Source: Bacteroides fragilis | GTDB taxonomy: Bacteria > Bacteroidota > Bacteroidia > Bacteroidales > DTGW01 | Assembly (NCBI GenBank): GCA_945889005.1 | Contig: CAMDBI010000011.1 | Coordinates: forward strand, 1,379-65,378 | DNA: 64,000 nucleotides | Direction of reading: 5' to 3' | In this document: piece after piece, positions 47,797-62,165 of the stretch | Layout of the letters: every line of letters begins with the position of its first letter | Numbering within the stretch: position 1 is the first letter of the stretch | The notes under the pieces: model-generated | Told to the model about the DNA's origin: nothing | Databases searched by the model: none | Seen by the model: only the letters and a program-made list of their open reading frames with translations | Made by a program: the position numbers and the translations under genes

Positions 47797-48372
47797 ATGA
47801 TCTTTTATCAAAAACCTATTTCTTTTATTTTTATAATTTCAATTGCTTTTAATTCAATCGCATTTTCTCAAAAGACAGTAAATGTATTACGTAAGGATAA
47901 TTTTTCGTACGAAGTGACCTGTGATATTACGTTCCTGAATAATGTATCAAAAGAACTCCTTGACTTTTGTTGGAATATGGAGAATATTAAAAAAATGCTA
48001 GCTGATGAACCTGTTGTGATTGAGTATTCGACTAAAGGCTATCAGCAAACTATCTCGTACGATTATTCATTTATATTTATGCGCTACTTTTCGCAGTACG
48101 AGCGCAAACTAAAACCTTCAGAAAGTAAAATAAGCTTCAAACTCACCAAAAACGAATGTTCAATACCTTTTATTCCAAACCTACAAAATGGTTATGGCGA
48201 ATACATTGTAAAATCGAACTATAAAACAACCACTGTCCATTACTATCAATATATTAGATGCGACGGTACTTTGCGCGATTTTTATTTCAATTACATAAAA
48301 AAAGATATTGTTAAATATTTTAATACATTTGAAAACGAGTTTTTAAAAACATTGAAAAATGCTAATCGCTAA
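47797..48372 (+). CDS. secreted hypothetical protein, first long gene of a two-radical-SAM operon
   Basis: 191 aa with a signal peptide. It overlaps the next gene by 14 nt. No family recognised. Confidence 0.5.
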   Translation: MIFYQKPISFIFIISIAFNSIAFSQKTVNVLRKDNFSYEVTCDITFLNNVSKELLDFCWNMENIKKMLADEPVVIEYSTKGYQQTISYDYSFIFMRYFSQYERKLKPSESKISFKLTKNECSIPFIPNLQNGYGEYIVKSNYKTTTVHYYQYIRCDGTLRDFYFNYIKKDIVKYFNTFENEFLKTLKNANR

Positions 48373-49282
48373 ATACTTTTTAAATTCAATACTTTATACT
48401 TTTAAATCAAAAATATTACGAAAAAATGTTCCATTTATAGCAGGGGTGGTCATTAACAACGATTGTAATTTGAAGTGTAGTCAATGTTTTCTGCAAAACG
48501 AAAAAAGAACAACTTTGTCCATTCAGCAAATTTCGGACGGATTAGACCAATTGTATTCGCGAGGCATACGTTCTGTTGCCATTACAGGTGGCGAACCATT
48601 TATGTGGCGCGATGGCAATCTGAGGCTCAACAATGTTTTCAATTTGATTTATAAAAAAGGGTTTATGGTATCGAGTGTATATACCAATGGAACATTTGCT
48701 ATAAACACCTCTGCAGACAATGTATTTGTAAGCATCGACGGTACCGAAGCAACCACCAACAAGCTTAGGGGGCCAGTTTTTCATACAGTTATCAATAACA
48801 TCAAAGCATCGAAACACCCCAAGATTTTTATCAATTACACCATCAACAGCTTAAACTACACTGAAATCGAACAGTTTTGCCAATTTATAAAAACAATTCC
48901 ACAGATAAAAGGTGTGTTTTTTTATTTCTATACACCATATAATTCGATAGACGAACTCTATCTTTCGCGCGATGAAAGGGTTGAAATAGCTCGAAAAATT
49001 ATAGCTTTGAAAAAAATATATAAAATATTGAACTCACATGCTGCCCTCAACGATTTCATAAACAATAACTGGAGTCGTCCCTCTGATGTTTGTTTGGTAT
49101 ATTCCGACAAAGCCGAGATTGTTCGTTGTTGTCGTACTATTAAAAACCAAGAAGCATGCGACAACTGTGGATATTTGGGATACCTCGAAGTAATCGATGT
49201 TACAAAATTTAAACTCAGTGCAGTATGGGAAGCATTCAATTATTTGCCCAACAAAAGTTCGAGGGAAAGTTATGTTAATTAG
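48359..49282 (+). CDS. radical SAM protein
   Basis: 307 aa with CX3CX2C (NNDCNLKCSQCF), GGEPF, and a C-terminal Cys cluster (CCRTIKNQEACDNCGY). Confidence 0.8.
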   Translation: MLIAKYFLNSILYTFKSKILRKNVPFIAGVVINNDCNLKCSQCFLQNEKRTTLSIQQISDGLDQLYSRGIRSVAITGGEPFMWRDGNLRLNNVFNLIYKKGFMVSSVYTNGTFAINTSADNVFVSIDGTEATTNKLRGPVFHTVINNIKASKHPKIFINYTINSLNYTEIEQFCQFIKTIPQIKGVFFYFYTPYNSIDELYLSRDERVEIARKIIALKKIYKILNSHAALNDFINNNWSRPSDVCLVYSDKAEIVRCCRTIKNQEACDNCGYLGYLEVIDVTKFKLSAVWEAFNYLPNKSSRESYVN

Positions 49283-49973
49283 TGCAATTACAAAGGCAAT
49301 TCGCTGCTACTATGCCGGCAACAATAGTCAGTTTGCATTCAAAAAACACCTCAAACCCAAGATTGACAAAAACGATATTGATTCCATTCATTTATATATT
49401 CATGTTCCATTTTGTTCGCATTGCTGTCCATACTGCCCATACAATAAAATTCAGGTCGATACAAATTTGGTCGAATTGTTCTTCAAAGCACTGGAAACCG
49501 AGATTGAACTTTATCACAATACGGTGGGTTGTATCAATGTTTCGTCGATTTACTTTGGAGGAGGTTCTCCGGCATTATTCCCCGGAGAAGTCGCATCGGT
49601 AATTGAGCAATTACAAAAACTTTTTAAGGTAAATGGCGAAATATGTATTGAAATAAACCCCAACGATTGTACATTCGAAAATTTACAAATACTCAAAAAT
49701 GCAGGCATAAAAACAGTAAGTGTGGGCGTACAATCGTTTCAGGATATCAATCTGAATATAATTGGCAGGTCGTACAATGCACAGGTAGCCGAAAAGGCAG
49801 TTGAAACAGTATGTAGCATCTTCGATTCGGTCAATATCGATCTTATGTTTGCATTGCCAACTCAGGACAATGAAAGTCTGTTGTACGATTTGTCGAAAGC
49901 CATTGGTTTCGGGGTCAATCAGATTACAACCTACCCCCTCTTTACATTTCCATACACGAAAGTTAGCAACTAG
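49272..49973 (+). pseudogene. 5' part of an interrupted HemN-like (class C) radical SAM gene
   Basis: From ATG 49272: HVPFCSHCCPYCPY (CX3CX2C), ..YFGGGSP.., ..VSVGVQSF.., ..NIDLMFALPTQ.., ..QITTYPLFTFPYTKV. A stop follows 3 codons later. The C-terminal half is found at 61581-62165. Confidence 0.75.
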
Positions 49974-50209: not shown

Positions 50210-50587
50210 ATGTCTTCTGTTTTTTTAAAAAATGAAACCACTATTCGAAAATTTGATATTCAAGAATTGCTTTTTATTACATGTGACGATCATTGCCTTT
50301 CTTTTCATTCAGTAAATAATGTATTTCATACAACTGGATGTATTTGCGATGTTTTAAAAGCTCTTCCAAGCTATTTTGTCTTAATAAATCGCAATACCGT
50401 TATCAATCTTAAACATATTAAAGAGATTAATTTGCCTCTAAGAAGATTAATCTTACAAAACGATACAACACACACAATTTCAAGTCGTAAGATGAGTTCT
50501 TTATTAAAGATGTTTTGTTTTCCAAAAAGCAAGTTAATAATACATACGTTTAATGACGATAATTTCACGTTCACGAAGTGTAACTGA
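50210..50587 (+). CDS. standalone LytTR-type DNA-binding protein
   Basis: 125 aa with ..IQELLFITCDDHCLSFHS.. ..LPSYFVLINRNTVINLKHIKEIN.. ..HTISSRK.. matching the LytTR domain pattern. No receiver domain is present. Confidence 0.72.
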   Translation: MSSVFLKNETTIRKFDIQELLFITCDDHCLSFHSVNNVFHTTGCICDVLKALPSYFVLINRNTVINLKHIKEINLPLRRLILQNDTTHTISSRKMSSLLKMFCFPKSKLIIHTFNDDNFTFTKCN

Positions 50588-51223: not shown

Positions 51224-53005
51224 ATGAGTTTGAATCTTTTTTCAAAGAATGATACTATTCTTCTTAAACGTGCGGCAAGTTACGTTAAACCATACAAAGC
51301 ACTTTTTTTAATTGCATTTTTTTGCATTTTGTGTGGTGTTGGAATTTCTATGGCACAACCACTTATTTGGGCAAAACTAATTACCAGTTTATTTGATCAA
51401 AGTTACTCAGGGCTTTTGTTCATAATACGTTATATGCTCTTGTTGTTTACTCTGAGTATAATTATTGGCTTTGCGCAATCATTCTTTTTTTCAACATTAA
51501 ATGAAAGAATGATTTATGATATAAAGCGGGATATGTTTGCCAAAGTACTGAATCTGCCAGTCAAAGCATTTGACGATATGAGAACTGGTGAATTTATGTC
51601 TAGGTTAAATAACGATGCCGGAGTAATTGCACATGTCATTACAAGTCAGTTGTTAAATAGTATTATTGATGTTTTAAGAGTTATAATTGTCGGTGTAATA
51701 ATGTTCAGCATAAGCGTAAAACTGTCTTTGGTGATACTTTTTGCCTTCCCTTTTAATTATGTTATTTTTTTCTATTTTGGCAAGATAATTCGCAAAAGAC
51801 AGGCAGCTATTGCAAAAATTAATGATACTTATTTTAGCATTGTTCAGGAATCAGTAAGTGGTGTCAGAGAAATAAAATCTTTAGGGATTAAACACAATGC
51901 CAATGAAAGATTCCTGAAAGTTACAAATATGCTAAAAAATAAAAATATTAAATTAAGCATTATAGGAAATGTTTCGAATTCATCATCACAAGTAGTCAAG
52001 TATGTTACTGAAATTATCGCCATATTTTTTGGTTTTTATTTAATAAAGATAGGGGAAATAAAAATTGAAATGTTCATTGCATTTATGGGGTATACAGAAA
52101 TGTTTAGTGCATCTTTAATGGCATTGACAAGTCTTAATTCAAATATTCAAGAGGCACTTGTTTCAGTTGGCAGAATATTTGGGCTTCTCGATAATCTAAA
52201 CTATTCACAGGAAAAATATGGCAATAGCAATGAACTTGCTATAAACGGCGAAATCTTTTTTGATAATGTTAGCTTTGGTTATGATACTAAAATGGAGGTA
52301 TTAAAGGATGTATCCTTTTCTTTAAAACCGAATAGAAAAATAGCATTAGTTGGAGGAAGTGGTGTAGGGAAAACAACTATAATTAATTTACTTCTGAAAT
52401 TTTATGAACCATCAAAAGGTGCAATTTGTATTGATGGTTATAATATTAGCGATTTCAATGAAGATACATTAAGAACTTTAATATCAGTAGTAAGGCAGGA
52501 ACCTTTTCTTTTTAATATGTCCATTAAAGACAATCTCCTATTAGCAAATTCATTTGCGACTATGGAAGAACTCATCAATGCCTGCACTTTTGCTTATATT
52601 CACGACTTTATCATGTTGTTACCTATGGGTTATGATACTATTGTAGGAGAAAGGGGCGTAAATTTTTCTGGTGGACAAAAACAACGATTCGCAATTGCTC
52701 GAGCTGTCTTAAAGAAGTCAAAAATTATTTTATTTGATGAAGCTACCTCAGCATTGGATAACGAATCTCAATATGCCATAAAAAAAGCAATCGACAAACT
52801 AGCAAAAGAAAAAACACTTTTAATTATTGCTCACAGGTTATTTACTATAATAGATGCAGATGAGATTATTGTTATGGACAATGGAGGAATAGTAGGTGTT
52901 GGTTCTCATAGTCTACTTTTAGAAAACAATGCCATTTATGCAAGGCTTTATAAGGCAGAGGTCGAAACAATAAGTATGAACCATCAAAATACTGTCGTTT
53001 CATGA
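51224..53005 (+). CDS. ABC exporter, fused permease-ATPase (type I exporter), no C39 peptidase domain
   Basis: 593 aa with a 6-TM N-half, Walker A GGSGVGKTT, signature SGGQKQR and Walker B IILFDEATSALD. Confidence 0.9.
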   Translation: MSLNLFSKNDTILLKRAASYVKPYKALFLIAFFCILCGVGISMAQPLIWAKLITSLFDQSYSGLLFIIRYMLLLFTLSIIIGFAQSFFFSTLNERMIYDIKRDMFAKVLNLPVKAFDDMRTGEFMSRLNNDAGVIAHVITSQLLNSIIDVLRVIIVGVIMFSISVKLSLVILFAFPFNYVIFFYFGKIIRKRQAAIAKINDTYFSIVQESVSGVREIKSLGIKHNANERFLKVTNMLKNKNIKLSIIGNVSNSSSQVVKYVTEIIAIFFGFYLIKIGEIKIEMFIAFMGYTEMFSASLMALTSLNSNIQEALVSVGRIFGLLDNLNYSQEKYGNSNELAINGEIFFDNVSFGYDTKMEVLKDVSFSLKPNRKIALVGGSGVGKTTIINLLLKFYEPSKGAICIDGYNISDFNEDTLRTLISVVRQEPFLFNMSIKDNLLLANSFATMEELINACTFAYIHDFIMLLPMGYDTIVGERGVNFSGGQKQRFAIARAVLKKSKIILFDEATSALDNESQYAIKKAIDKLAKEKTLLIIAHRLFTIIDADEIIVMDNGGIVGVGSHSLLLENNAIYARLYKAEVETISMNHQNTVVS

Positions 53006-53709
53006 GTTTAGTAGATGAAAACAGACAAAAGGTAAGAGTGGTTGTAATTGATAGTGGGATTGACTCATCTGTTTCTACTCTAAAACACAATATAATTAAA
53101 TCAACAGGTTTCTGGGTAAATTCTGTTGGTTTGATTGGTGAAGTTTCTAATAAACAAATTAATAGTTTACATGGCACTTCAGTTGCGTTAGTAATAAAGG
53201 ATATTTGTAACAATGTAGAATTTGTTAGTTTTAATATTTTAAATGAAAGGTTAAAAACCGATAGCAGAATAATGATTTACGCAATGAATGAGGCTTTGAG
53301 AGAGAAGCCTAATATTATTCATTTGAGTTTAGGAACAAGTAATTGGAGATATTACTTTTATATAAAAAAAATTGTTAATGAGGCCAAGAAAAATAATATT
53401 ATTATTGTTGCAGCCTATAACAACAAAGGAATATTTCCATCTTATCCAGCTTCAATAAGGGGTGTTGTTGGAGTAAAGAGCTTATTCAACAATTCCGGGA
53501 AAAACTTTTTCTATTATAAATACGGTCGTTACTATGCACCCAATTCACTAAACGAGATTGAAGGTTCTTCAGAATTGATAAATGCTGTTGAAATTAAAGG
53601 GACAAGTATTTCAGCCGCTTATATTACTGGACATATTGCTAATGTAATATTTAATCAAGACATTCATAATTATAATGATATTTTAAAAAGTTTAAAAACG
53701 AGAACTTAA
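53002..53709 (+). CDS. minimal S8 (subtilisin-like) serine peptidase, no signal peptide
   Basis: 235 aa with Asp (VVVIDSGID), His (SLHGTSVA), Asn (AAYNN) and Ser (KGTSISAAYITGH). Its ATG overlaps the ABC stop (ATGA). Confidence 0.8.
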   Translation: MSLVDENRQKVRVVVIDSGIDSSVSTLKHNIIKSTGFWVNSVGLIGEVSNKQINSLHGTSVALVIKDICNNVEFVSFNILNERLKTDSRIMIYAMNEALREKPNIIHLSLGTSNWRYYFYIKKIVNEAKKNNIIIVAAYNNKGIFPSYPASIRGVVGVKSLFNNSGKNFFYYKYGRYYAPNSLNEIEGSSELINAVEIKGTSISAAYITGHIANVIFNQDIHNYNDILKSLKTRT

Positions 53710-53721
53710 AATAAATCTAAA

Positions 53722-55887
53722 ATGACTGAGACAAGAAGTATTAAAATGGGAAACCTTAATAAGGAATGGATGAACGGTGCAGCAAAAAATATAACATTTT
53801 GTGTTACCGAAGATTGTAATCTTGCCTGTAAATATTGTTATATGACAGGCAAAAACGGCACTGTTAAAATGAATTTCGAAACAGCAAAAAAGGCTGTTGA
53901 TTTTATTCTTAATAGCAATAGTGACGAATTTAAACAAAAAGCTGTTATATTTGATTTTATTGGTGGTGAGCCGTTTTTGGAAATTGAACTTATTGATAAA
54001 GTTTCAGATTATATTAAAATCCAAATGTTTGAAATGGATCACAAATGGTTTGATTATTATAGGTTCAGTTTTTCATCCAACGGTTTGTTATATGGGACAA
54101 AAAAAGTACAAGAGTATATTCAAAAGAATCGAGGGCATATTTCCATTGGACTAAGTGTTGATGGAAATAAGTATAAGCATGATTTACAACGCATAAAAAA
54201 GGATGGTTCAGGCTCTTATGATGATGTAGTTAAAAATGTTCCTTTGTGGTTAGAACAATTTCCTTTTGCTACTACTAAGGCTACATTTTCTCACGAAGAT
54301 ATACCATATTTAAAAGATAGTATCATCAGTCTGTGGAACTTGGGCTTAAAAGAAATTCCTGCCAATGTTGTTTTTGAAGATGTCTGGCATGAAGGAGATG
54401 ATGTTATTTTTGAGAACCAATTGAAAGAATTGGCAGATTATATTATTTCTAATGAGTTATGGTGGGAACATTCAGTTAGATTTTTTGATCCCAAAACAGG
54501 TACCCCTCTTTCGCAAAGTGATTTAAATAAAAATTATTGTGGCTCAGGAAAAATGTTATCTATAGATTGCAATGGAGATCTCTTCCCATGCATAAGGTTT
54601 TGCGATATAAGTTTAAACAACCGTGAACCAATAATAATTGGAAATATTGAAAGTGGTATTGATGAGGATAAAGTACGTCCTTTTAAACTGCTTTCATATA
54701 AAAATCAAAGCCCAGAAGAATGTATGAACTGTCAGGTTGCATCAGGGTGTGCTTGGTGTACTGGAGCAAATTACGATTTTGCTGATTCAGATACCATCTA
54801 CCAAAGAGCAATATTTATTTGCAAAATGCATAAAGCGAATGTTCGTGCTAATGAATATTTTTGGAATAAACTTAAAGAACAATTAGGCTATATGCCTCAT
54901 GAAAGGCAAACATGGATTGAAATGAATAAAGTAGAAAATAAATATCTGCAAATAATGACTTCCGATCAAATAATACCCCATTGTAATTACAGAAATTGGC
55001 ATAATAAGAACAATAAAATGGATGATGCAATTTTTGAGAAAAGTATAAAGTTTGCTAAGGAAAATGGCTTTGTTGTGGTTTTTTTTGAAGAGTTTGAAAA
55101 TAAAAGGATTGCAGCTAAAAATCTAAGTGGTATTAATGTAGTTGATGGCAATTCAACTAAATATATCGAAGGTAACAACCTTTATATATTTGACAATTTC
55201 GTAAATGATAATATGGAAAATGTTCAAAACTTGATTCTTCGAATTCATGCTGAAAATATTTCCAATATATATAACTATATTCAAAAACTAACCAATAAGT
55301 CTACAAGAATAAATCTTCAATTGGAATCCATTGAGCGATGGACAGATATCGAATTGCAAATATATGAATCACAATTAAGCCAATTATCTGATTTGGTATT
55401 TGAATCTTACAAAAACAATAATCCTATTGAAATAAATGTTCTAACTGATATAATGGAATTAGAAAGTATTAATGAATGTGGGGCAGGTATTTCTTCTTTT
55501 GCTGTTGCTCCGAATGGTAAAATATATCTATGTCCAGCTTTTTATTTTGAAAACCCGGAAAATTCAATTGGAAGTATAGATGAGGGTATTTCCATAATAA
55601 ATAGTCATATGTTATATGCTGAAAATTCTCCAATTTGTTCAAAATGCGATGCCTTTCATTGTAATAGATGTAAATTTTTGAATAAGAAACGAACCAACGA
55701 AATTAATACCCCTTCAAAGATGCAATGTATTATTAGTCATATTGAAAGAAATAAATCTAGAGAACTTCAATTGCGTTTAAAGGAATGGGGTTTTAATGAT
55801 TTCAAAAATTTCATTAAAGAAATCGATTATCTAGACCCTTTAGACCACCTATTATTAACTCACGATAGCGATGGACGTTGTATATAA
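53722..55887 (+). CDS. radical SAM / SPASM peptide maturase with a second C-terminal SPASM-like Cys-rich domain
   Basis: 721 aa with CX3CX2C (EDCNLACKYCY) and GGEPF. The first SPASM region is CGSGKMLSIDCNGDLFPC..CMNCQVASGCAWC. The C-terminal half repeats the pattern as CGAGISSFAVAPNGKIYLCP..CSKCDAFHCNRC..C. Confidence 0.88.
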   Translation: MTETRSIKMGNLNKEWMNGAAKNITFCVTEDCNLACKYCYMTGKNGTVKMNFETAKKAVDFILNSNSDEFKQKAVIFDFIGGEPFLEIELIDKVSDYIKIQMFEMDHKWFDYYRFSFSSNGLLYGTKKVQEYIQKNRGHISIGLSVDGNKYKHDLQRIKKDGSGSYDDVVKNVPLWLEQFPFATTKATFSHEDIPYLKDSIISLWNLGLKEIPANVVFEDVWHEGDDVIFENQLKELADYIISNELWWEHSVRFFDPKTGTPLSQSDLNKNYCGSGKMLSIDCNGDLFPCIRFCDISLNNREPIIIGNIESGIDEDKVRPFKLLSYKNQSPEECMNCQVASGCAWCTGANYDFADSDTIYQRAIFICKMHKANVRANEYFWNKLKEQLGYMPHERQTWIEMNKVENKYLQIMTSDQIIPHCNYRNWHNKNNKMDDAIFEKSIKFAKENGFVVVFFEEFENKRIAAKNLSGINVVDGNSTKYIEGNNLYIFDNFVNDNMENVQNLILRIHAENISNIYNYIQKLTNKSTRINLQLESIERWTDIELQIYESQLSQLSDLVFESYKNNNPIEINVLTDIMELESINECGAGISSFAVAPNGKIYLCPAFYFENPENSIGSIDEGISIINSHMLYAENSPICSKCDAFHCNRCKFLNKKRTNEINTPSKMQCIISHIERNKSRELQLRLKEWGFNDFKNFIKEIDYLDPLDHLLLTHDSDGRCI

Positions 55888-56317: not shown

Positions 56318-59218
56318 ATGAGAATTTGGTTATTACTTTTTTTATTCTTCTATTGTAATATGTCCATTATTTCTCAGTCTGATTCTATAAAATCAAATAG
56401 AAATTATATTATTCACGGATATGTTACCGATAGCGAAACGGGGGAGCATTTGAATGGTGTTGTAATTACTGAGGAAAATACCAATGTGAGCACAATTACC
56501 AATAATTATGGCTTTTATAGTATTAAACTTTCTGAAAGTCAGATCAAATTAAATATTTCATATATTGGATATAGGAATGAAATACAAGAACAAAGTCTTT
56601 TAAAAAATACCGAACTAAATATTCCATTGTTGCCTTTGCCTATTGAAATTAAAGAAGTTATTATAACCGATAAAAATACCCTGAAACAAGTTGAAAGTTC
56701 ACAAATGGGTGTAAACGAGCTGCAAATGAAAAATCTCAAAAGCATTCCGGTACTTGCAGGAGAAAACGATATTATTAAAACAATGCAATTATTACCGGGA
56801 GTTCAGCAAGGGTCTGAAGGTTCTTCTTCGCTTTATATCAGAGGAGGCAGTTCAGACCAAAACCTTATTTTGCTTGATGAGGCTTCGGTTTATAATATCA
56901 ATCATTTATTTGGGTTTATGTCTACATTTAATGATGATGCTATTCAAAGTGCAACAGTTTTAAAAGGTGGGATTCCTGCCCGCTATGGTGGGCGACTTTC
57001 TTCTGTTGTAGATGTTCGTATGAAAGAAGGAAATAATCAGAACGTTGAAAGTCAAGGTTCAATAGGAACAATTGCATCAAGGTTTACTATCTCTGGGCCA
57101 ATTGTAAATAATAAAACATCTTTTATGTTCTCGGCTCGAAGATCTTATTTTGATTTACTTACTCGACCTTTATTAAAACTCATGGAATTGGTAAATGGAG
57201 AACAAGTAAAGTCGTTTTATTATTTTCAAGATTATAATCTTAAAGTCAACCATATATTTTCATCAAACAGCCGTCTGTTTTTTAGCATTTATACTGGAAA
57301 CGACGTAATAAGTGATTATATGAAAACGAATCATAATAATCGGCCTTTTTTAGAAACCTATGAATTTAATTGGGGCAACATTACTGCAACAACTCGTTGG
57401 AACTATAAATTTGGTGACAGATTATTCAGCAATTTCACATTGATTTATAGCCAATATATGAATAATGCTCATTTTAATAATTCATGGACAGATACTTCTC
57501 ATATTAACTATAAAGATTACGGAAATTTTAAATCGGGAATTCGAGATTATTCAGCTAAGTCCGATTTTTATTTTTATATTAATTCAAACCATACGTTTCG
57601 TTTTGGTTCCCAAAGCACTTTACATATATTTTATCCCGGTAATCTATTTGAGGGTTCTTATATTCAGAACTTCAATAATACAAAAACAGATACTTCTATA
57701 AATCTAAAAGCGATTAATCTTGCTGAAAATGAATTGTACCTCGAAGATGAAATGAAAATTGGTAATAAATGGAGAGCCAATTTAGGCCTGAGGTATTGTC
57801 AAGCAACAGTTGAAAACAAAACATATAATTCAATACAGCCTCGTTTAAGTCTTTCTTACTTAATTGCTGAGAATTGGTCAGTCAAAGCTGCATTGTGTAA
57901 TATGAACCAAAATATGAACCTTTTAACTGGCTCATCTTCAAACGGACTTCCAATGGATTTGTGGATTCCAACTACAGGTATTTTAAAGCCTCAAAGTTCT
58001 AAACAGTATTCAGTTGGTTCGGTTTTATTATTCAACAGCAGTATTGAATTTATTACGGAATTATTCTATAAAAACATGCAAAATGTTCTTGATTACCGTG
58101 ATGGCACAAGCTATGTTTTTGCTGATAAAGAATGGCAAAGTAAGATTGTTCAAGGTAATGGCATTGCCTATGGTGCTGAATTTATGGCAGAAAAGAAAAC
58201 AGGCAATACATTTGGTTGGTTTAACTATACTTGGAGCAAAAGTTTGCGACAATTTAATGAAATAGACAATGGTCAGAGGTTTCCTTACCAATATCATCGT
58301 ACACACAATATTAACTTTATGGTAGTTCACCGTTTTTCGGAAAAGTTTGAAATTGGTGCTATTTGGGTATTTTCATCCGGTCGTTTTTTAACAGTGAATA
58401 ACCAGAAATATTCTTCGTATCTTGAACCCAGAAGCAATGTTGAAACATATACTAATCGTAGTAATTTTGAAGCTCCTGCATATCATCGGTTGGATGTAAA
58501 TTTGAGATTTTCGAAACAAAAGAAGTGGGGAGTCAGAACATGGAGTATAGGTTGTTACAACTTGTACAACCGTCAGAATCCCTCAATTGTTTATGTTTCC
58601 GATAATAAAGTGCACCAATTGGCTATTATGCCTATTATACCGTCAGTGTCATATAATTATAAATTTGGAATGAAGCGAGTTTCTTCAATAAAGCCTACGT
58701 TTGATATCCCTGTAGAAAGCACCCCAATTGTTGAAAAAAAAGATACTTTTTTAAAAATCATTGATAATAAAATTCAGATATTAAATACCAATAAAGGAAA
58801 TAGAATAGTAGGTTTAAATTTTAATATCAGTTTATCAAGTACCAGTAAAAGCATTTTGTTCAATTTAACCTCGGCCAAGTTCGTATTAAATAATTTGGCA
58901 ATAGGTTCTTCTTTAGGTTATACTTACAATAAATATTTTGTTAACGATATTGAAAACACTATACAAACAATAAATTATGGCTTTTTGAGTAGATATTACA
59001 TTGGCAAATACAAAATCAAACCATTTGTTCAAATTATACCGGGTTTAAAAATTACTAGTCAGGAAACACTAAGTTTTAATAAATTCTTAAATAATGGGCT
59101 AGGCGTAGCTTGTTTTTTAGCTGATAGAATAGCTCTCGAAGCATTGTTGAGCAACGATTATAATCAGAATGCAATTTCATTCCGAATAGGCTTTCAAATA
59201 TATTTTTCTAAAAAATAA
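56318..59218 (+). CDS. TonB-dependent receptor (CarboxypepD_reg-plug-barrel) with extra ~183-aa C-terminal beta-barrel-like domain
   Basis: 966 aa. A signal peptide is followed by ..YIIHGYVTDSETGEHLNGVVI.., a plug and a barrel ending ..SVSYNYKF at residue ~783. The frame then continues for 183 aa of alternating beta-strand-like sequence ending ..RIGFQIYFSKK. Confidence 0.82.
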   Translation: MRIWLLLFLFFYCNMSIISQSDSIKSNRNYIIHGYVTDSETGEHLNGVVITEENTNVSTITNNYGFYSIKLSESQIKLNISYIGYRNEIQEQSLLKNTELNIPLLPLPIEIKEVIITDKNTLKQVESSQMGVNELQMKNLKSIPVLAGENDIIKTMQLLPGVQQGSEGSSSLYIRGGSSDQNLILLDEASVYNINHLFGFMSTFNDDAIQSATVLKGGIPARYGGRLSSVVDVRMKEGNNQNVESQGSIGTIASRFTISGPIVNNKTSFMFSARRSYFDLLTRPLLKLMELVNGEQVKSFYYFQDYNLKVNHIFSSNSRLFFSIYTGNDVISDYMKTNHNNRPFLETYEFNWGNITATTRWNYKFGDRLFSNFTLIYSQYMNNAHFNNSWTDTSHINYKDYGNFKSGIRDYSAKSDFYFYINSNHTFRFGSQSTLHIFYPGNLFEGSYIQNFNNTKTDTSINLKAINLAENELYLEDEMKIGNKWRANLGLRYCQATVENKTYNSIQPRLSLSYLIAENWSVKAALCNMNQNMNLLTGSSSNGLPMDLWIPTTGILKPQSSKQYSVGSVLLFNSSIEFITELFYKNMQNVLDYRDGTSYVFADKEWQSKIVQGNGIAYGAEFMAEKKTGNTFGWFNYTWSKSLRQFNEIDNGQRFPYQYHRTHNINFMVVHRFSEKFEIGAIWVFSSGRFLTVNNQKYSSYLEPRSNVETYTNRSNFEAPAYHRLDVNLRFSKQKKWGVRTWSIGCYNLYNRQNPSIVYVSDNKVHQLAIMPIIPSVSYNYKFGMKRVSSIKPTFDIPVESTPIVEKKDTFLKIIDNKIQILNTNKGNRIVGLNFNISLSSTSKSILFNLTSAKFVLNNLAIGSSLGYTYNKYFVNDIENTIQTINYGFLSRYYIGKYKIKPFVQIIPGLKITSQETLSFNKFLNNGLGVACFLADRIALEALLSNDYNQNAISFRIGFQIYFSKK

Positions 59219-59225
59219 ATAATAA

Positions 59226-60068
59226 ATGACGAAACACATTCTAAACATAATTTATATTATTTTCTTTCCAGCTTTATATTCTTGCGATAAAGAAATAGAC
59301 ACTAATATTTCAGGTGGGAATGATGAATATGTTGTTAATGCGACCTTATGCTCCGATAGTATTGTAAGTATGGTTGTATACAATACTAGTAATATACTTG
59401 ATAATTCTCAGCCATTATTTGTGAATTCCGTTTCTGCTTTACTTTATGAGGGCAGAAGTATTATAGATACTTTTATTTACAATGGAAGTGGTAGATATTT
59501 GTGTAAAATTAAACCTGTGTCAAATAAACCATATTCATTAAAAATTAAAATTAATGGACATTCTATAACTTCAACAGATACAATTCCAAAAAAGGTTAGA
59601 ATTCAGAGTGTCGATACTTTTTTAGTTGGCAATAAGTTGTTTTGTTCTGTTAATATTACCGACCCAATTAATACCGATAATTATTATTTATTTACAATGA
59701 ATTCTGCTCAAAAATATAGTCCCGAAAAGTTTATTAAGCAGGAGTTTACATGTAATGACCCAATGATAACTAACGCTGATGTGGTTGACAGTCTTGATGG
59801 TGGTAATATTATTTTCTTTCGTGACACTCAATTTAAAGGTAAATCCCATGCATTGTTTATATCTTTACCATATCAAAAAGAAAAAGTTTTAAATTTTCAG
59901 CTTTGGTCTATTAGTCATGCTTTTTATAATTATTGCCATTCAATAGTTATTAATAGACAGTTCAAATCATCATTATTTAATGAGAAAGTAAAAGTCCAAA
60001 GTAATATTATAGGTGGAAAAGGTATATTTGCAGCATACTCAGTAGATACATTGCAAGTTATATTATAG
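59226..60068 (+). CDS. DUF4249-like lipoprotein (usual partner of this receptor class)
   Basis: 280 aa with lipobox ALYSC. It lies immediately downstream of the receptor. The family call rests on context and layout. Confidence 0.65.
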   Translation: MTKHILNIIYIIFFPALYSCDKEIDTNISGGNDEYVVNATLCSDSIVSMVVYNTSNILDNSQPLFVNSVSALLYEGRSIIDTFIYNGSGRYLCKIKPVSNKPYSLKIKINGHSITSTDTIPKKVRIQSVDTFLVGNKLFCSVNITDPINTDNYYLFTMNSAQKYSPEKFIKQEFTCNDPMITNADVVDSLDGGNIIFFRDTQFKGKSHALFISLPYQKEKVLNFQLWSISHAFYNYCHSIVINRQFKSSLFNEKVKVQSNIIGGKGIFAAYSVDTLQVIL

Positions 60069-60957: not shown

Positions 60958-60985
60958 TTATACTACTTGTCAATATATAAATTAA

Positions 60986-61245
60986 ACATAGGACAAGTAT
61001 CAATAAAGATAGGAGTCCAATTGAATAAGATTTATGTCATAAATATAACATAGGAGTTAATTTATAATAGTTAGGACAAACAACGAATTAGATAGGAGTT
61101 AATTTTTATTACATAGGAGATTGTTAATTGTTTGTAGACCTTAATAAATAGAAGATAGATATTAATTCGATAAACATAGGAATAAACTCCTATAACATAG
61201 GACAATTAAAGATTAACATAGGATAGATAAAGAATAACATAGGAC
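60986..61245 (+). repeat. array of 9-bp ACATAGGA(N) boxes phased every ~21 bp
   Basis: ACATAGGA starts at 60986, 61048, 61111, 61174, 61195, 61216 and 61237. Variants (GATAGGAG/GTTAGGAC) start at 61008, 61070 and 61091. One inverted copy (CTCCTAT) lies at 61187-61193. The last four boxes are spaced exactly 21 bp apart. Confidence 0.85.
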
Positions 61246-61420: not shown

Positions 61421-61580
61421 ATAAAAAAAACAAAAAATGTAGTACAAATCGCCAGTTGCTAACAGCGGGTAAAGTCAATAGCGGGTTTAGTGGGTTATTC
61501 AGCTCCTCGTCACGCAGGTAGTTTTATCTTGTTGGATAGGATTGTATCTCCGTATTCCGCTACTGACCTTACCCGCAAAC

Positions 61581-62165
61581 GTTGGGAATTATAAAAAAAT
61601 AAAGCGTGTAAAAATGCCTAATTTAAGTACCCGAAAAAAACAATACTACAGCATTTACGATACATTAATAACCCAAGGTTACGGTCAAGTATCGGTTTGG
61701 AGTTTCAAAAAAGGTGAAGGTGTTAAATATTCCTCTGTAACACGCGATGGATATTTGGGATTTGGAGCAGGTGCAGGCACACACCTCAATAATGCTTATC
61801 TTTTAAATACTTTCCCAGTTAAGTCCTATATTGAAAAGCTCGATAGCCGAGAATTCCCAACAGCTCTAAAATTTGCAATGTTGCCCTATATGAATAATTT
61901 GTTTTGGCTTTATTGGAGATTTTACGACACTCGAATACCTGTTTCAGATTTTAATTCGCGATTTGGAAAAGTAGGAAAAATAAAACGACTATTATTCCTG
62001 ATGAGAATTTTGGGTATGCTTACGAAAACCGAAAACGAATATTTACTTACCCGCAAAGGCTCTTTTTGGCTACACTTGGCTCAAAATTACTTTTCACTTC
62101 AGTATATAAACAAAATTTGGTCGGTTTGCCTTACCAACAATTATCCCAAAGAAATAAAATTCTAA
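61581..62165 (+). pseudogene. 3' part of the interrupted HemN-like radical SAM gene (HemN_C-like half)
   Basis: The frame is open from 61542. From Val14 (61581) it reads VGNYKKIKRVKMPNLSTRKKQYYSIYDTLITQGYGQVSVWSFKK..GFGAGAGTHL... This is the region that follows the radical SAM core in HemN/HemW-like proteins. Confidence 0.75.

Follow-up and report, generated by a model that had tools for sequence, protein, structure and literature searches.

We found that the 721-residue maturase encoded in the window (the whole stretch of 64,000 nucleotides analysed here) joins two modules in one polypeptide: an N-terminal module (N-module) whose sequence was shown to have all the features expected of an active radical SAM/SPASM peptide maturase, and a C-terminal module (C-module) that is a degenerate radical SAM/SPASM paralogue, having lost the SAM-binding cluster and retained a complete seven-Cys SPASM motif. 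The best explanation of the whole, including a mechanism and the acquisition of the genes on an island, is that the protein is a single-polypeptide version of the two-protein CXXX-repeat maturase; we regard this explanation as probable. The features discussed below are listed in Table 1.

Table 1. Maturase, cassette and island borders in the window
Feature	Position	Strand	Basis or remark
HemN-like gene, 5' half, left island border	49197..49973	+	NF006385 positions 20-243 of 439
LytTR-domain-only protein, 125 aa, putative regulator	50210..50587	+	conserved in L083 and L084
Precursor peptide, 70 aa	50697..50909	+	TIGR04118, 33.4 bits against 35
ABC exporter, fused permease and ATPase	51224..53005	+	domain profiles
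S8 subtilisin-like protease, putative leader peptidase	53002..53709	+	closest to QhpE
Fused maturase, 721 aa, ATG start	53722..55887	+	ORF and NCBIfam profiles
N-module, aa 21-380, active-type radical SAM/SPASM maturase	53782..54861	+	TIGR04115
SAM-cluster motif C32/C36/C39	53815-53838	+	cysteine map
SPASM-1 (C273-C367)	54538-54822	+	cysteine map
Short linker, aa 381-404	54862..54933	+	pLDDT below 50 at residues 399-406
C-module, aa 405-721, degenerate radical SAM/SPASM paralogue	54934..55884	+	TIGR04119
Invariant C421 codon	54982-54984	+	in C-module
SPASM-2 (C586-C669)	55477-55728	+	in C-module
TIGR04116 CXXX-system small protein, 97 aa	55916..56209	+	TIGR04116, 89.6 bits against 50
HemN-like gene, 3' half, right island border	61542..62165	+	NF006385 positions 253-414 of 439

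Architecture of the maturase and its two modules

The profile TIGR04115 (rSAM_Cxxx_rpt) aligned to the N-module over its full length (profile positions 1-359) with 555.7 bits, and TIGR04119 (CXXX_matur) aligned to aa 503-710 with 279.4 bits in the search with the whole protein and 268.1 bits in that with the C-terminal half alone; the curated NCBIfam cut-offs are 350 and 150, respectively. With both scores well over the cut-offs, the proposal of the sequence-only reading that the two halves lie in one 721-residue protein was borne out. The secondary traits of the two families were also observed, namely a CX3CX2C motif and a seven-Cys SPASM with a CXXX-repeat precursor nearby for TIGR04115, and a SPASM-like Cys motif without CX3CX2C, paired with TIGR04115, for TIGR04119.

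In the cysteine map, the CX3CX2C motif (CNLACKYC) corresponds to C32, C36 and C39, SPASM-1 to C273, C290, C334, C337, C343, C346 and C367, and SPASM-2 to C586, C604, C639, C642, C647, C650 and C669. C367 and C586 are separated by a stretch with a single Cys, C421, and the protein therefore lacks a second CX3CX2C. The earlier description of residues ~1-400 as a radical SAM/SPASM enzyme and of residues ~560-690 as a repeat of the SPASM pattern without a second CX3CX2C was thus accurate, and the peptide strings quoted for it were all found. The 17 motif Cys residues and C421 were invariant in 40 fused homologues and likewise in 81 loci. The Cys invariance and the domain matches are far beyond chance. 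The 15 invariant Cys residues outside the SAM cluster would be enough for four auxiliary [4Fe-4S] clusters.

For the N-module, the best solved relative was CteB both by sequence (E 3e-31) and by fold (E 1e-15; model pLDDT 76.8), followed in the fold ranking by anSME, ChlB and TigE. The alignment to CteB began only at CteB residue 96; thus, the N-module does not contain the N-terminal leader-binding domain of CteB. After its own family, the top families were PapB, CcpM, SCIFF, QhpD and RumMC, all of those scored against curated cut-offs falling below them: PapB family NF047865, 220.5 bits (cut-off 340); SCIFF maturase TIGR03974, 131.5 bits (425); and the QhpD model, 132 (453). Only seven SPASM Cys residues are invariant in the N-module. 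In the 81-locus N-module alignment, the column of window residue V252 holds an extra conserved Cys in 69 of the 70 radical SAM partners of the split type and in none of the 11 fused forms; this Cys may be the fourth ligand of auxiliary cluster I. Most of the split-type partners also terminate in '..IC'. In the Spirochaetales locus L024 (5268-7806), two tandem N-module radical SAM genes lie upstream of one C-module gene.

The C-module was recognised by the generic SPASM profile TIGR04085 (best stretch aa 586-669, with seven Cys; 33.3 bits against a cut-off of 27). Pfam detected Radical_SAM, Fer4_12 and the first SPASM only, PF13186 matching the N-module copy alone. When the two modules were compared by hhalign, they aligned with 93.8% probability (E 1.8e-7) over the last beta/alpha barrel unit and the first half of the SPASM domain, and in the search with the C-terminal half alone, the matches were to the second halves of complete radical SAM/SPASM models, those of PapB and TIGR04115 among them. 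The AlphaFold model of the C-module (pLDDT 67.8) gave only two fold matches under E 1e-3, CteB (E 7e-9) and anSMEcpe (about 4e-6), with alignments spanning about 370-390 alignment columns; in the structure models of both modules, the cluster loops are of low confidence. By these profile and fold matches, the C-module is a degenerate paralogue rather than a mere SPASM-like tail, and the concern that the C-terminal half might be unrelated to SPASM is removed by the TIGR04085 match, the profile alignment between the halves and the fold match.

The eight Cys residues of the C-module (C421 and those of SPASM-2) were invariant in 81 of 81 loci. No position between C421 and Y548 was invariant, which indicates that the SAM-binding motifs of the C-module are gone; a YLDP motif is conserved near the C-terminus. 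Stand-alone relatives of the C-module (300-400 aa), which also have C421 and the seven SPASM Cys residues, start exactly at the position of fused residue ~405 with 'MLKYLxILLDD..SFCHY'. Pseudo-SAM/SPASM proteins such as TIGR04347 resemble the C-module in being derived from radical SAM/SPASM enzymes and in having lost CX3CX2C. However, TIGR04347 had no significant match to the C-module, and the pseudo-enzyme described here always goes with an active paralogue, either as its obligate partner or as part of a fused protein.

Fused and split forms among the relatives

The best 120 homologue clusters were all fused proteins of 695-738 aa with 97-100% query coverage, including ones from Clostridium botulinum and other Bacillota. 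The fused homologues carry both family names in the JGI annotation, and the NCBIfam models TIGR04115 and TIGR04119 are both typed 'equivalog_domain'. The fused architecture is thus known, common and already annotated, and the window maturase is an ordinary member. The rarity that the sequence-only reading had implied was not upheld: fusion is the rule in an entire clade, most of whose members are Bacillota.

To compare gene contexts, we took the best 80 loci (8 fused, all from Bacillota, and 72 split) of the 387 relatives in the genome collection and added the window copies and three close relatives, which gave 85 loci (13 fused and 72 split). That the C-terminal half belongs to a family encoded elsewhere as a separate gene had been proposed in the sequence-only reading, and 72 of these 85 loci agree with it. 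In the search of the C-module against 50%-identity representatives, 246 clusters fell below 1e-30; the best 150 of them were mostly stand-alone proteins, with roughly a dozen fused proteins or fragments of fused proteins. The radical SAM gene immediately precedes the C-module gene, on the same strand, in 71 of the 72 split loci, and in 70 the two genes are spaced by -13 to +18 nt. The genes of the split form are adjacent and translationally coupled, and the linker of the fused form occupies the position of the gene boundary. We also considered stop-codon recoding between the split genes and rejected it, as the two genes share a frame about as often as chance predicts (20 of 72) and their stop codons are of mixed identity.

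An assembly or sequencing error joining two adjacent genes might be suspected, since the modules are separate and adjacent in 72 of 85 loci, in 20 of them in the same frame, with no more than a stop codon and 18 nt in between. However, two assemblies made independently (ENA ERZ27280308 and Logan ERR3719163) contain the identical 721-residue protein, at least 120 fused homologue clusters are known, complete Clostridium genomes among them, and the fused forms make up a distinct monophyletic clade with its own gene context. No stop codon between the halves occurred within that clade, so the suspicion that homologues always have one there proved unfounded. An artefact has a vanishingly small probability and is, for practical purposes, already refuted.

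In neighbour-joining trees of both modules, the fused forms were monophyletic, and the window and loci L083-L085 were nested among members from Bacillota. The gene contexts of the two forms differed: of the 13 fused loci, 11 have the S8 protease and 11 the ABC exporter, and of the 72 split loci, none has the protease and 6 have the exporter. The TIGR04116 protein was present with both forms (13 of 13 and 68 of 72). A 538-residue protein (P0185), in which a stand-alone C-module is joined to a TIGR04116-like domain, connects all three proteins (N-module, C-module and TIGR04116).

The precursor peptide, the cassette and the island

The cassette is co-directional and consists of the LytTR protein, the precursor, the ABC exporter, the S8 protease, the maturase and the TIGR04116 protein. 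The precursor has a leader (MKNLFSKK...EDTQANWI) followed by 13 Cys residues at 2-4-residue spacing, and its core contains neither Asp nor Glu. It scored 33.4 bits against TIGR04118 (AC3_0185), for which the cut-off is 35; precursors of relatives scored 34.9-41.9, and the leader motif is common to them. Precursors of the fused type are 47-70 aa in most loci, with an MKxLFSKK leader (the mechanical ORF in L084 is longer), and those of the split type have a Tat-like SRREFFKK signal and long CXXX arrays with up to 69 Cys residues. Examples of the latter within L010-L082 are L023 6462-6780 and L029 2927-3965; the split-type precursors that were tested matched TIGR04117 and TIGR04114. The precursor gene in the window is flanked by a 22-nt inverted repeat (50630-50651/50965-50986; 86% complementary; core AAAAATGTGCCAGC), which was not clearly conserved in L083 or L084. 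Promoter and terminator scans gave background levels, and there were no Rfam matches within the window.

The S8 protease matched Pfam Peptidase_S8 (40.8 bits against 21.8) and scored 111 bits against the QhpE model NF049966, under its cut-off of 165. The small protein downstream of the maturase exceeded the cut-off of TIGR04116 (CXXX_rpt_assoc) (Table 1); it probably starts at the tabulated ATG and not at the mechanical ORF start (55871), because its homologues in L083-L085 are 94-98 aa. The idea of a PqqD-like recognition element in the small protein gained no support, its profile giving only chance-level matches to PDB sequences and Pfam. In L085 (4185-4945), two TIGR04116 paralogues occur in tandem.

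All four components of the NCBIfam system TIGR04115/TIGR04119/TIGR04116/TIGR04118 are present, three of them above the cut-offs and the fourth, the precursor, as a probable TIGR04118 member. The fused architecture is common to the Clostridium, Paenibacillus and Desulfosporosinus members of this CXXX-repeat system. The host here, in contrast, belongs to Bacteroidales, whose other surveyed loci are of the split, Tat-signal type, and the window cassette lies on an inserted island with a TonB-dependent receptor. The named best matches of the Lon protease in the window were all from Bacteroidales, with about 70% identity. At the borders of the island, two ORFs match successive parts of NF006385, which indicates that a HemN-like gene is interrupted by ~11.6 kb. 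The inserted segment has a GC content of 0.30, against 0.36-0.38 to each side, and contains the whole cassette, the TonB-dependent receptor, a DUF4249 protein and one further ORF. We looked for an integrase and terminal repeats of the island and found neither. The island was probably acquired horizontally by the Bacteroidales host from a source in Bacillota.

In the window, the receptor (56318-59218) and the DUF4249 protein (59226-60068) follow the cassette, as do a TonB-dependent receptor and a DUF4249 protein in L085 (5040-8389). The identity between the two receptors is only 31%, compared with 55-68% for the cassette genes; thus, a functional linkage of the receptor to the cassette is weak and uncertain. 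Short AT-rich direct repeats with (A/T)TAGGA are clustered at 60985-61240, near the right end of the island. The relative L084 adjoins relaxase and MobC genes. Outside the island, the interrupted HemN-like gene is directly preceded by another radical SAM gene (48359-49282; weak PTO1314-like match).

Proposed mechanism, alternatives and significance

In the mechanism that we propose, the N-module would cleave SAM and form several thioether cross-links from Cys residues of the 13-Cys precursor core. As in CteB, PapB and Tte1186, a thiolate of the substrate would probably bind to auxiliary cluster I, which has three Cys ligands. The C-module would add two [4Fe-4S] clusters, as predicted from its Cys conservation. 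It may serve as a built-in partner, handing the electron back to the SAM cluster once each cross-link is made; another possibility, compatible with the first, is that it binds other Cys residues of the substrate. The S8 protease would cut off the leader, and the ABC transporter would then export the product. In both PapB and Tte1186, a substrate Cys is bound to an auxiliary cluster (PMC10177961), and in PapB the return of the electron to the SAM cluster after thioether formation is obligatorily intermolecular, probably via the second auxiliary cluster (PMC10470005). On these precedents we propose multiple thioethers formed by the N-module, and a relay, a thiol holder or both in the C-module. 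The Cys-Asp/Glu links of the PapB/QhpD type are excluded, because the core contains no Asp or Glu. No leader-recognition element was identified.

Three known systems are close enough for comparison. CteB (PDB 5WGG), the SCIFF thioether maturase, is the best solved relative of both modules and likewise has a radical SAM barrel and a two-cluster SPASM with only three Cys residues for auxiliary cluster I, but it has an N-terminal leader-binding domain and no second SPASM module. PapB, the maturase of the ranthipeptide freyrasin, belongs to the top-scoring foreign family for the N-module and similarly acts on a repeat-based substrate (CX3D). Of its two auxiliary clusters, one is the binding site of the substrate thiol; PapB has no attached pseudo-enzyme module and requires an external mediator for electron return (PMC10177961, PMC10470005). 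The cassette also resembles QhpD/QhpE of quinohemoprotein amine dehydrogenase, in which a radical SAM/SPASM thioether maturase is likewise found with a subtilisin-like leader peptidase, although the substrate here is a small peptide and not an enzyme subunit. The QhpD/QhpE system also includes an ABC exporter.

A more specific version of the mechanism would make the C-module the auxiliary-cluster-only, pseudo-radical-SAM part of an enzyme with five [4Fe-4S] clusters, serving in cis as the redox partner that PapB-type synthases need from outside. Electron return within the polypeptide would then allow about a dozen links to be made processively on one peptide, and C421, located in what remains of the former SAM-cluster loop, would be specifically involved. 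In this detailed form, we consider the proposal rather doubtful. The C-module might instead be mainly a substrate-binding scaffold that replaces a RiPP-recognition element (RRE), perhaps holding a thiolate on its own cluster I, with no essential redox role. The missing CteB-type leader-binding domain (alignment from CteB residue 96), the negative RRE search of the TIGR04116 protein, the 13 Cys residues of the substrate and the binding of substrate Cys by an auxiliary cluster in PapB and Tte1186 (PMC10177961) are all in favour of a scaffold. However, the eight invariant Cys residues could ligate both clusters fully and so leave no open site, and peptide binding by the C-module is only putative. 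A scaffold role of this kind has a limited chance of being correct.

It is distinctly improbable that the C-module is a second catalyst of a separate, SAM-independent step, for example, a redox reaction or sulfur transfer. The NCBIfam name 'maturase' is in line with catalysis, as is the invariance of C421 and the C-terminal YLDP, which cluster binding alone does not explain; nevertheless, the module has no recognisable catalytic motif and no invariant residue from C421 to Y548, and its fold is a reduced version of that of the partner enzyme. As for the N-module, its radical chemistry on the Cys-rich core might be of another kind (for example, anSME-like oxidation, C-C cross-linking or epimerisation), given that the core contains no Asp or Glu, that every thioether-maturase model scored under its cut-off, and that the relatives of the N-module by structure or sequence also include anSME and cyclophane-forming families. 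Against this, the best foreign families (PapB, CcpM, SCIFF, QhpD and RumMC) all form thioethers or mature Cys-rich peptides, CteB is the nearest solved structure, and the repeat unit is defined by Cys. We therefore consider chemistry other than thioether formation rather unlikely.

The fusion itself is ordinary: one clade of the family normally has it, and the family was defined bioinformatically years ago. The interest lies mainly in the fact that the family is uncharacterised in the literature searched, in which we found no characterised members of TIGR04115 or TIGR04119. For genome mining, two types of system can be distinguished: fused maturases with a protease, an ABC exporter and short peptides, and split maturases with Cys-rich proteins bearing Tat signals. 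The natural pair of fused and split forms, each combining an active radical SAM enzyme with a cluster-only paralogue, would offer a clean system for studying the role of auxiliary clusters in thioether-forming RiPP maturases.
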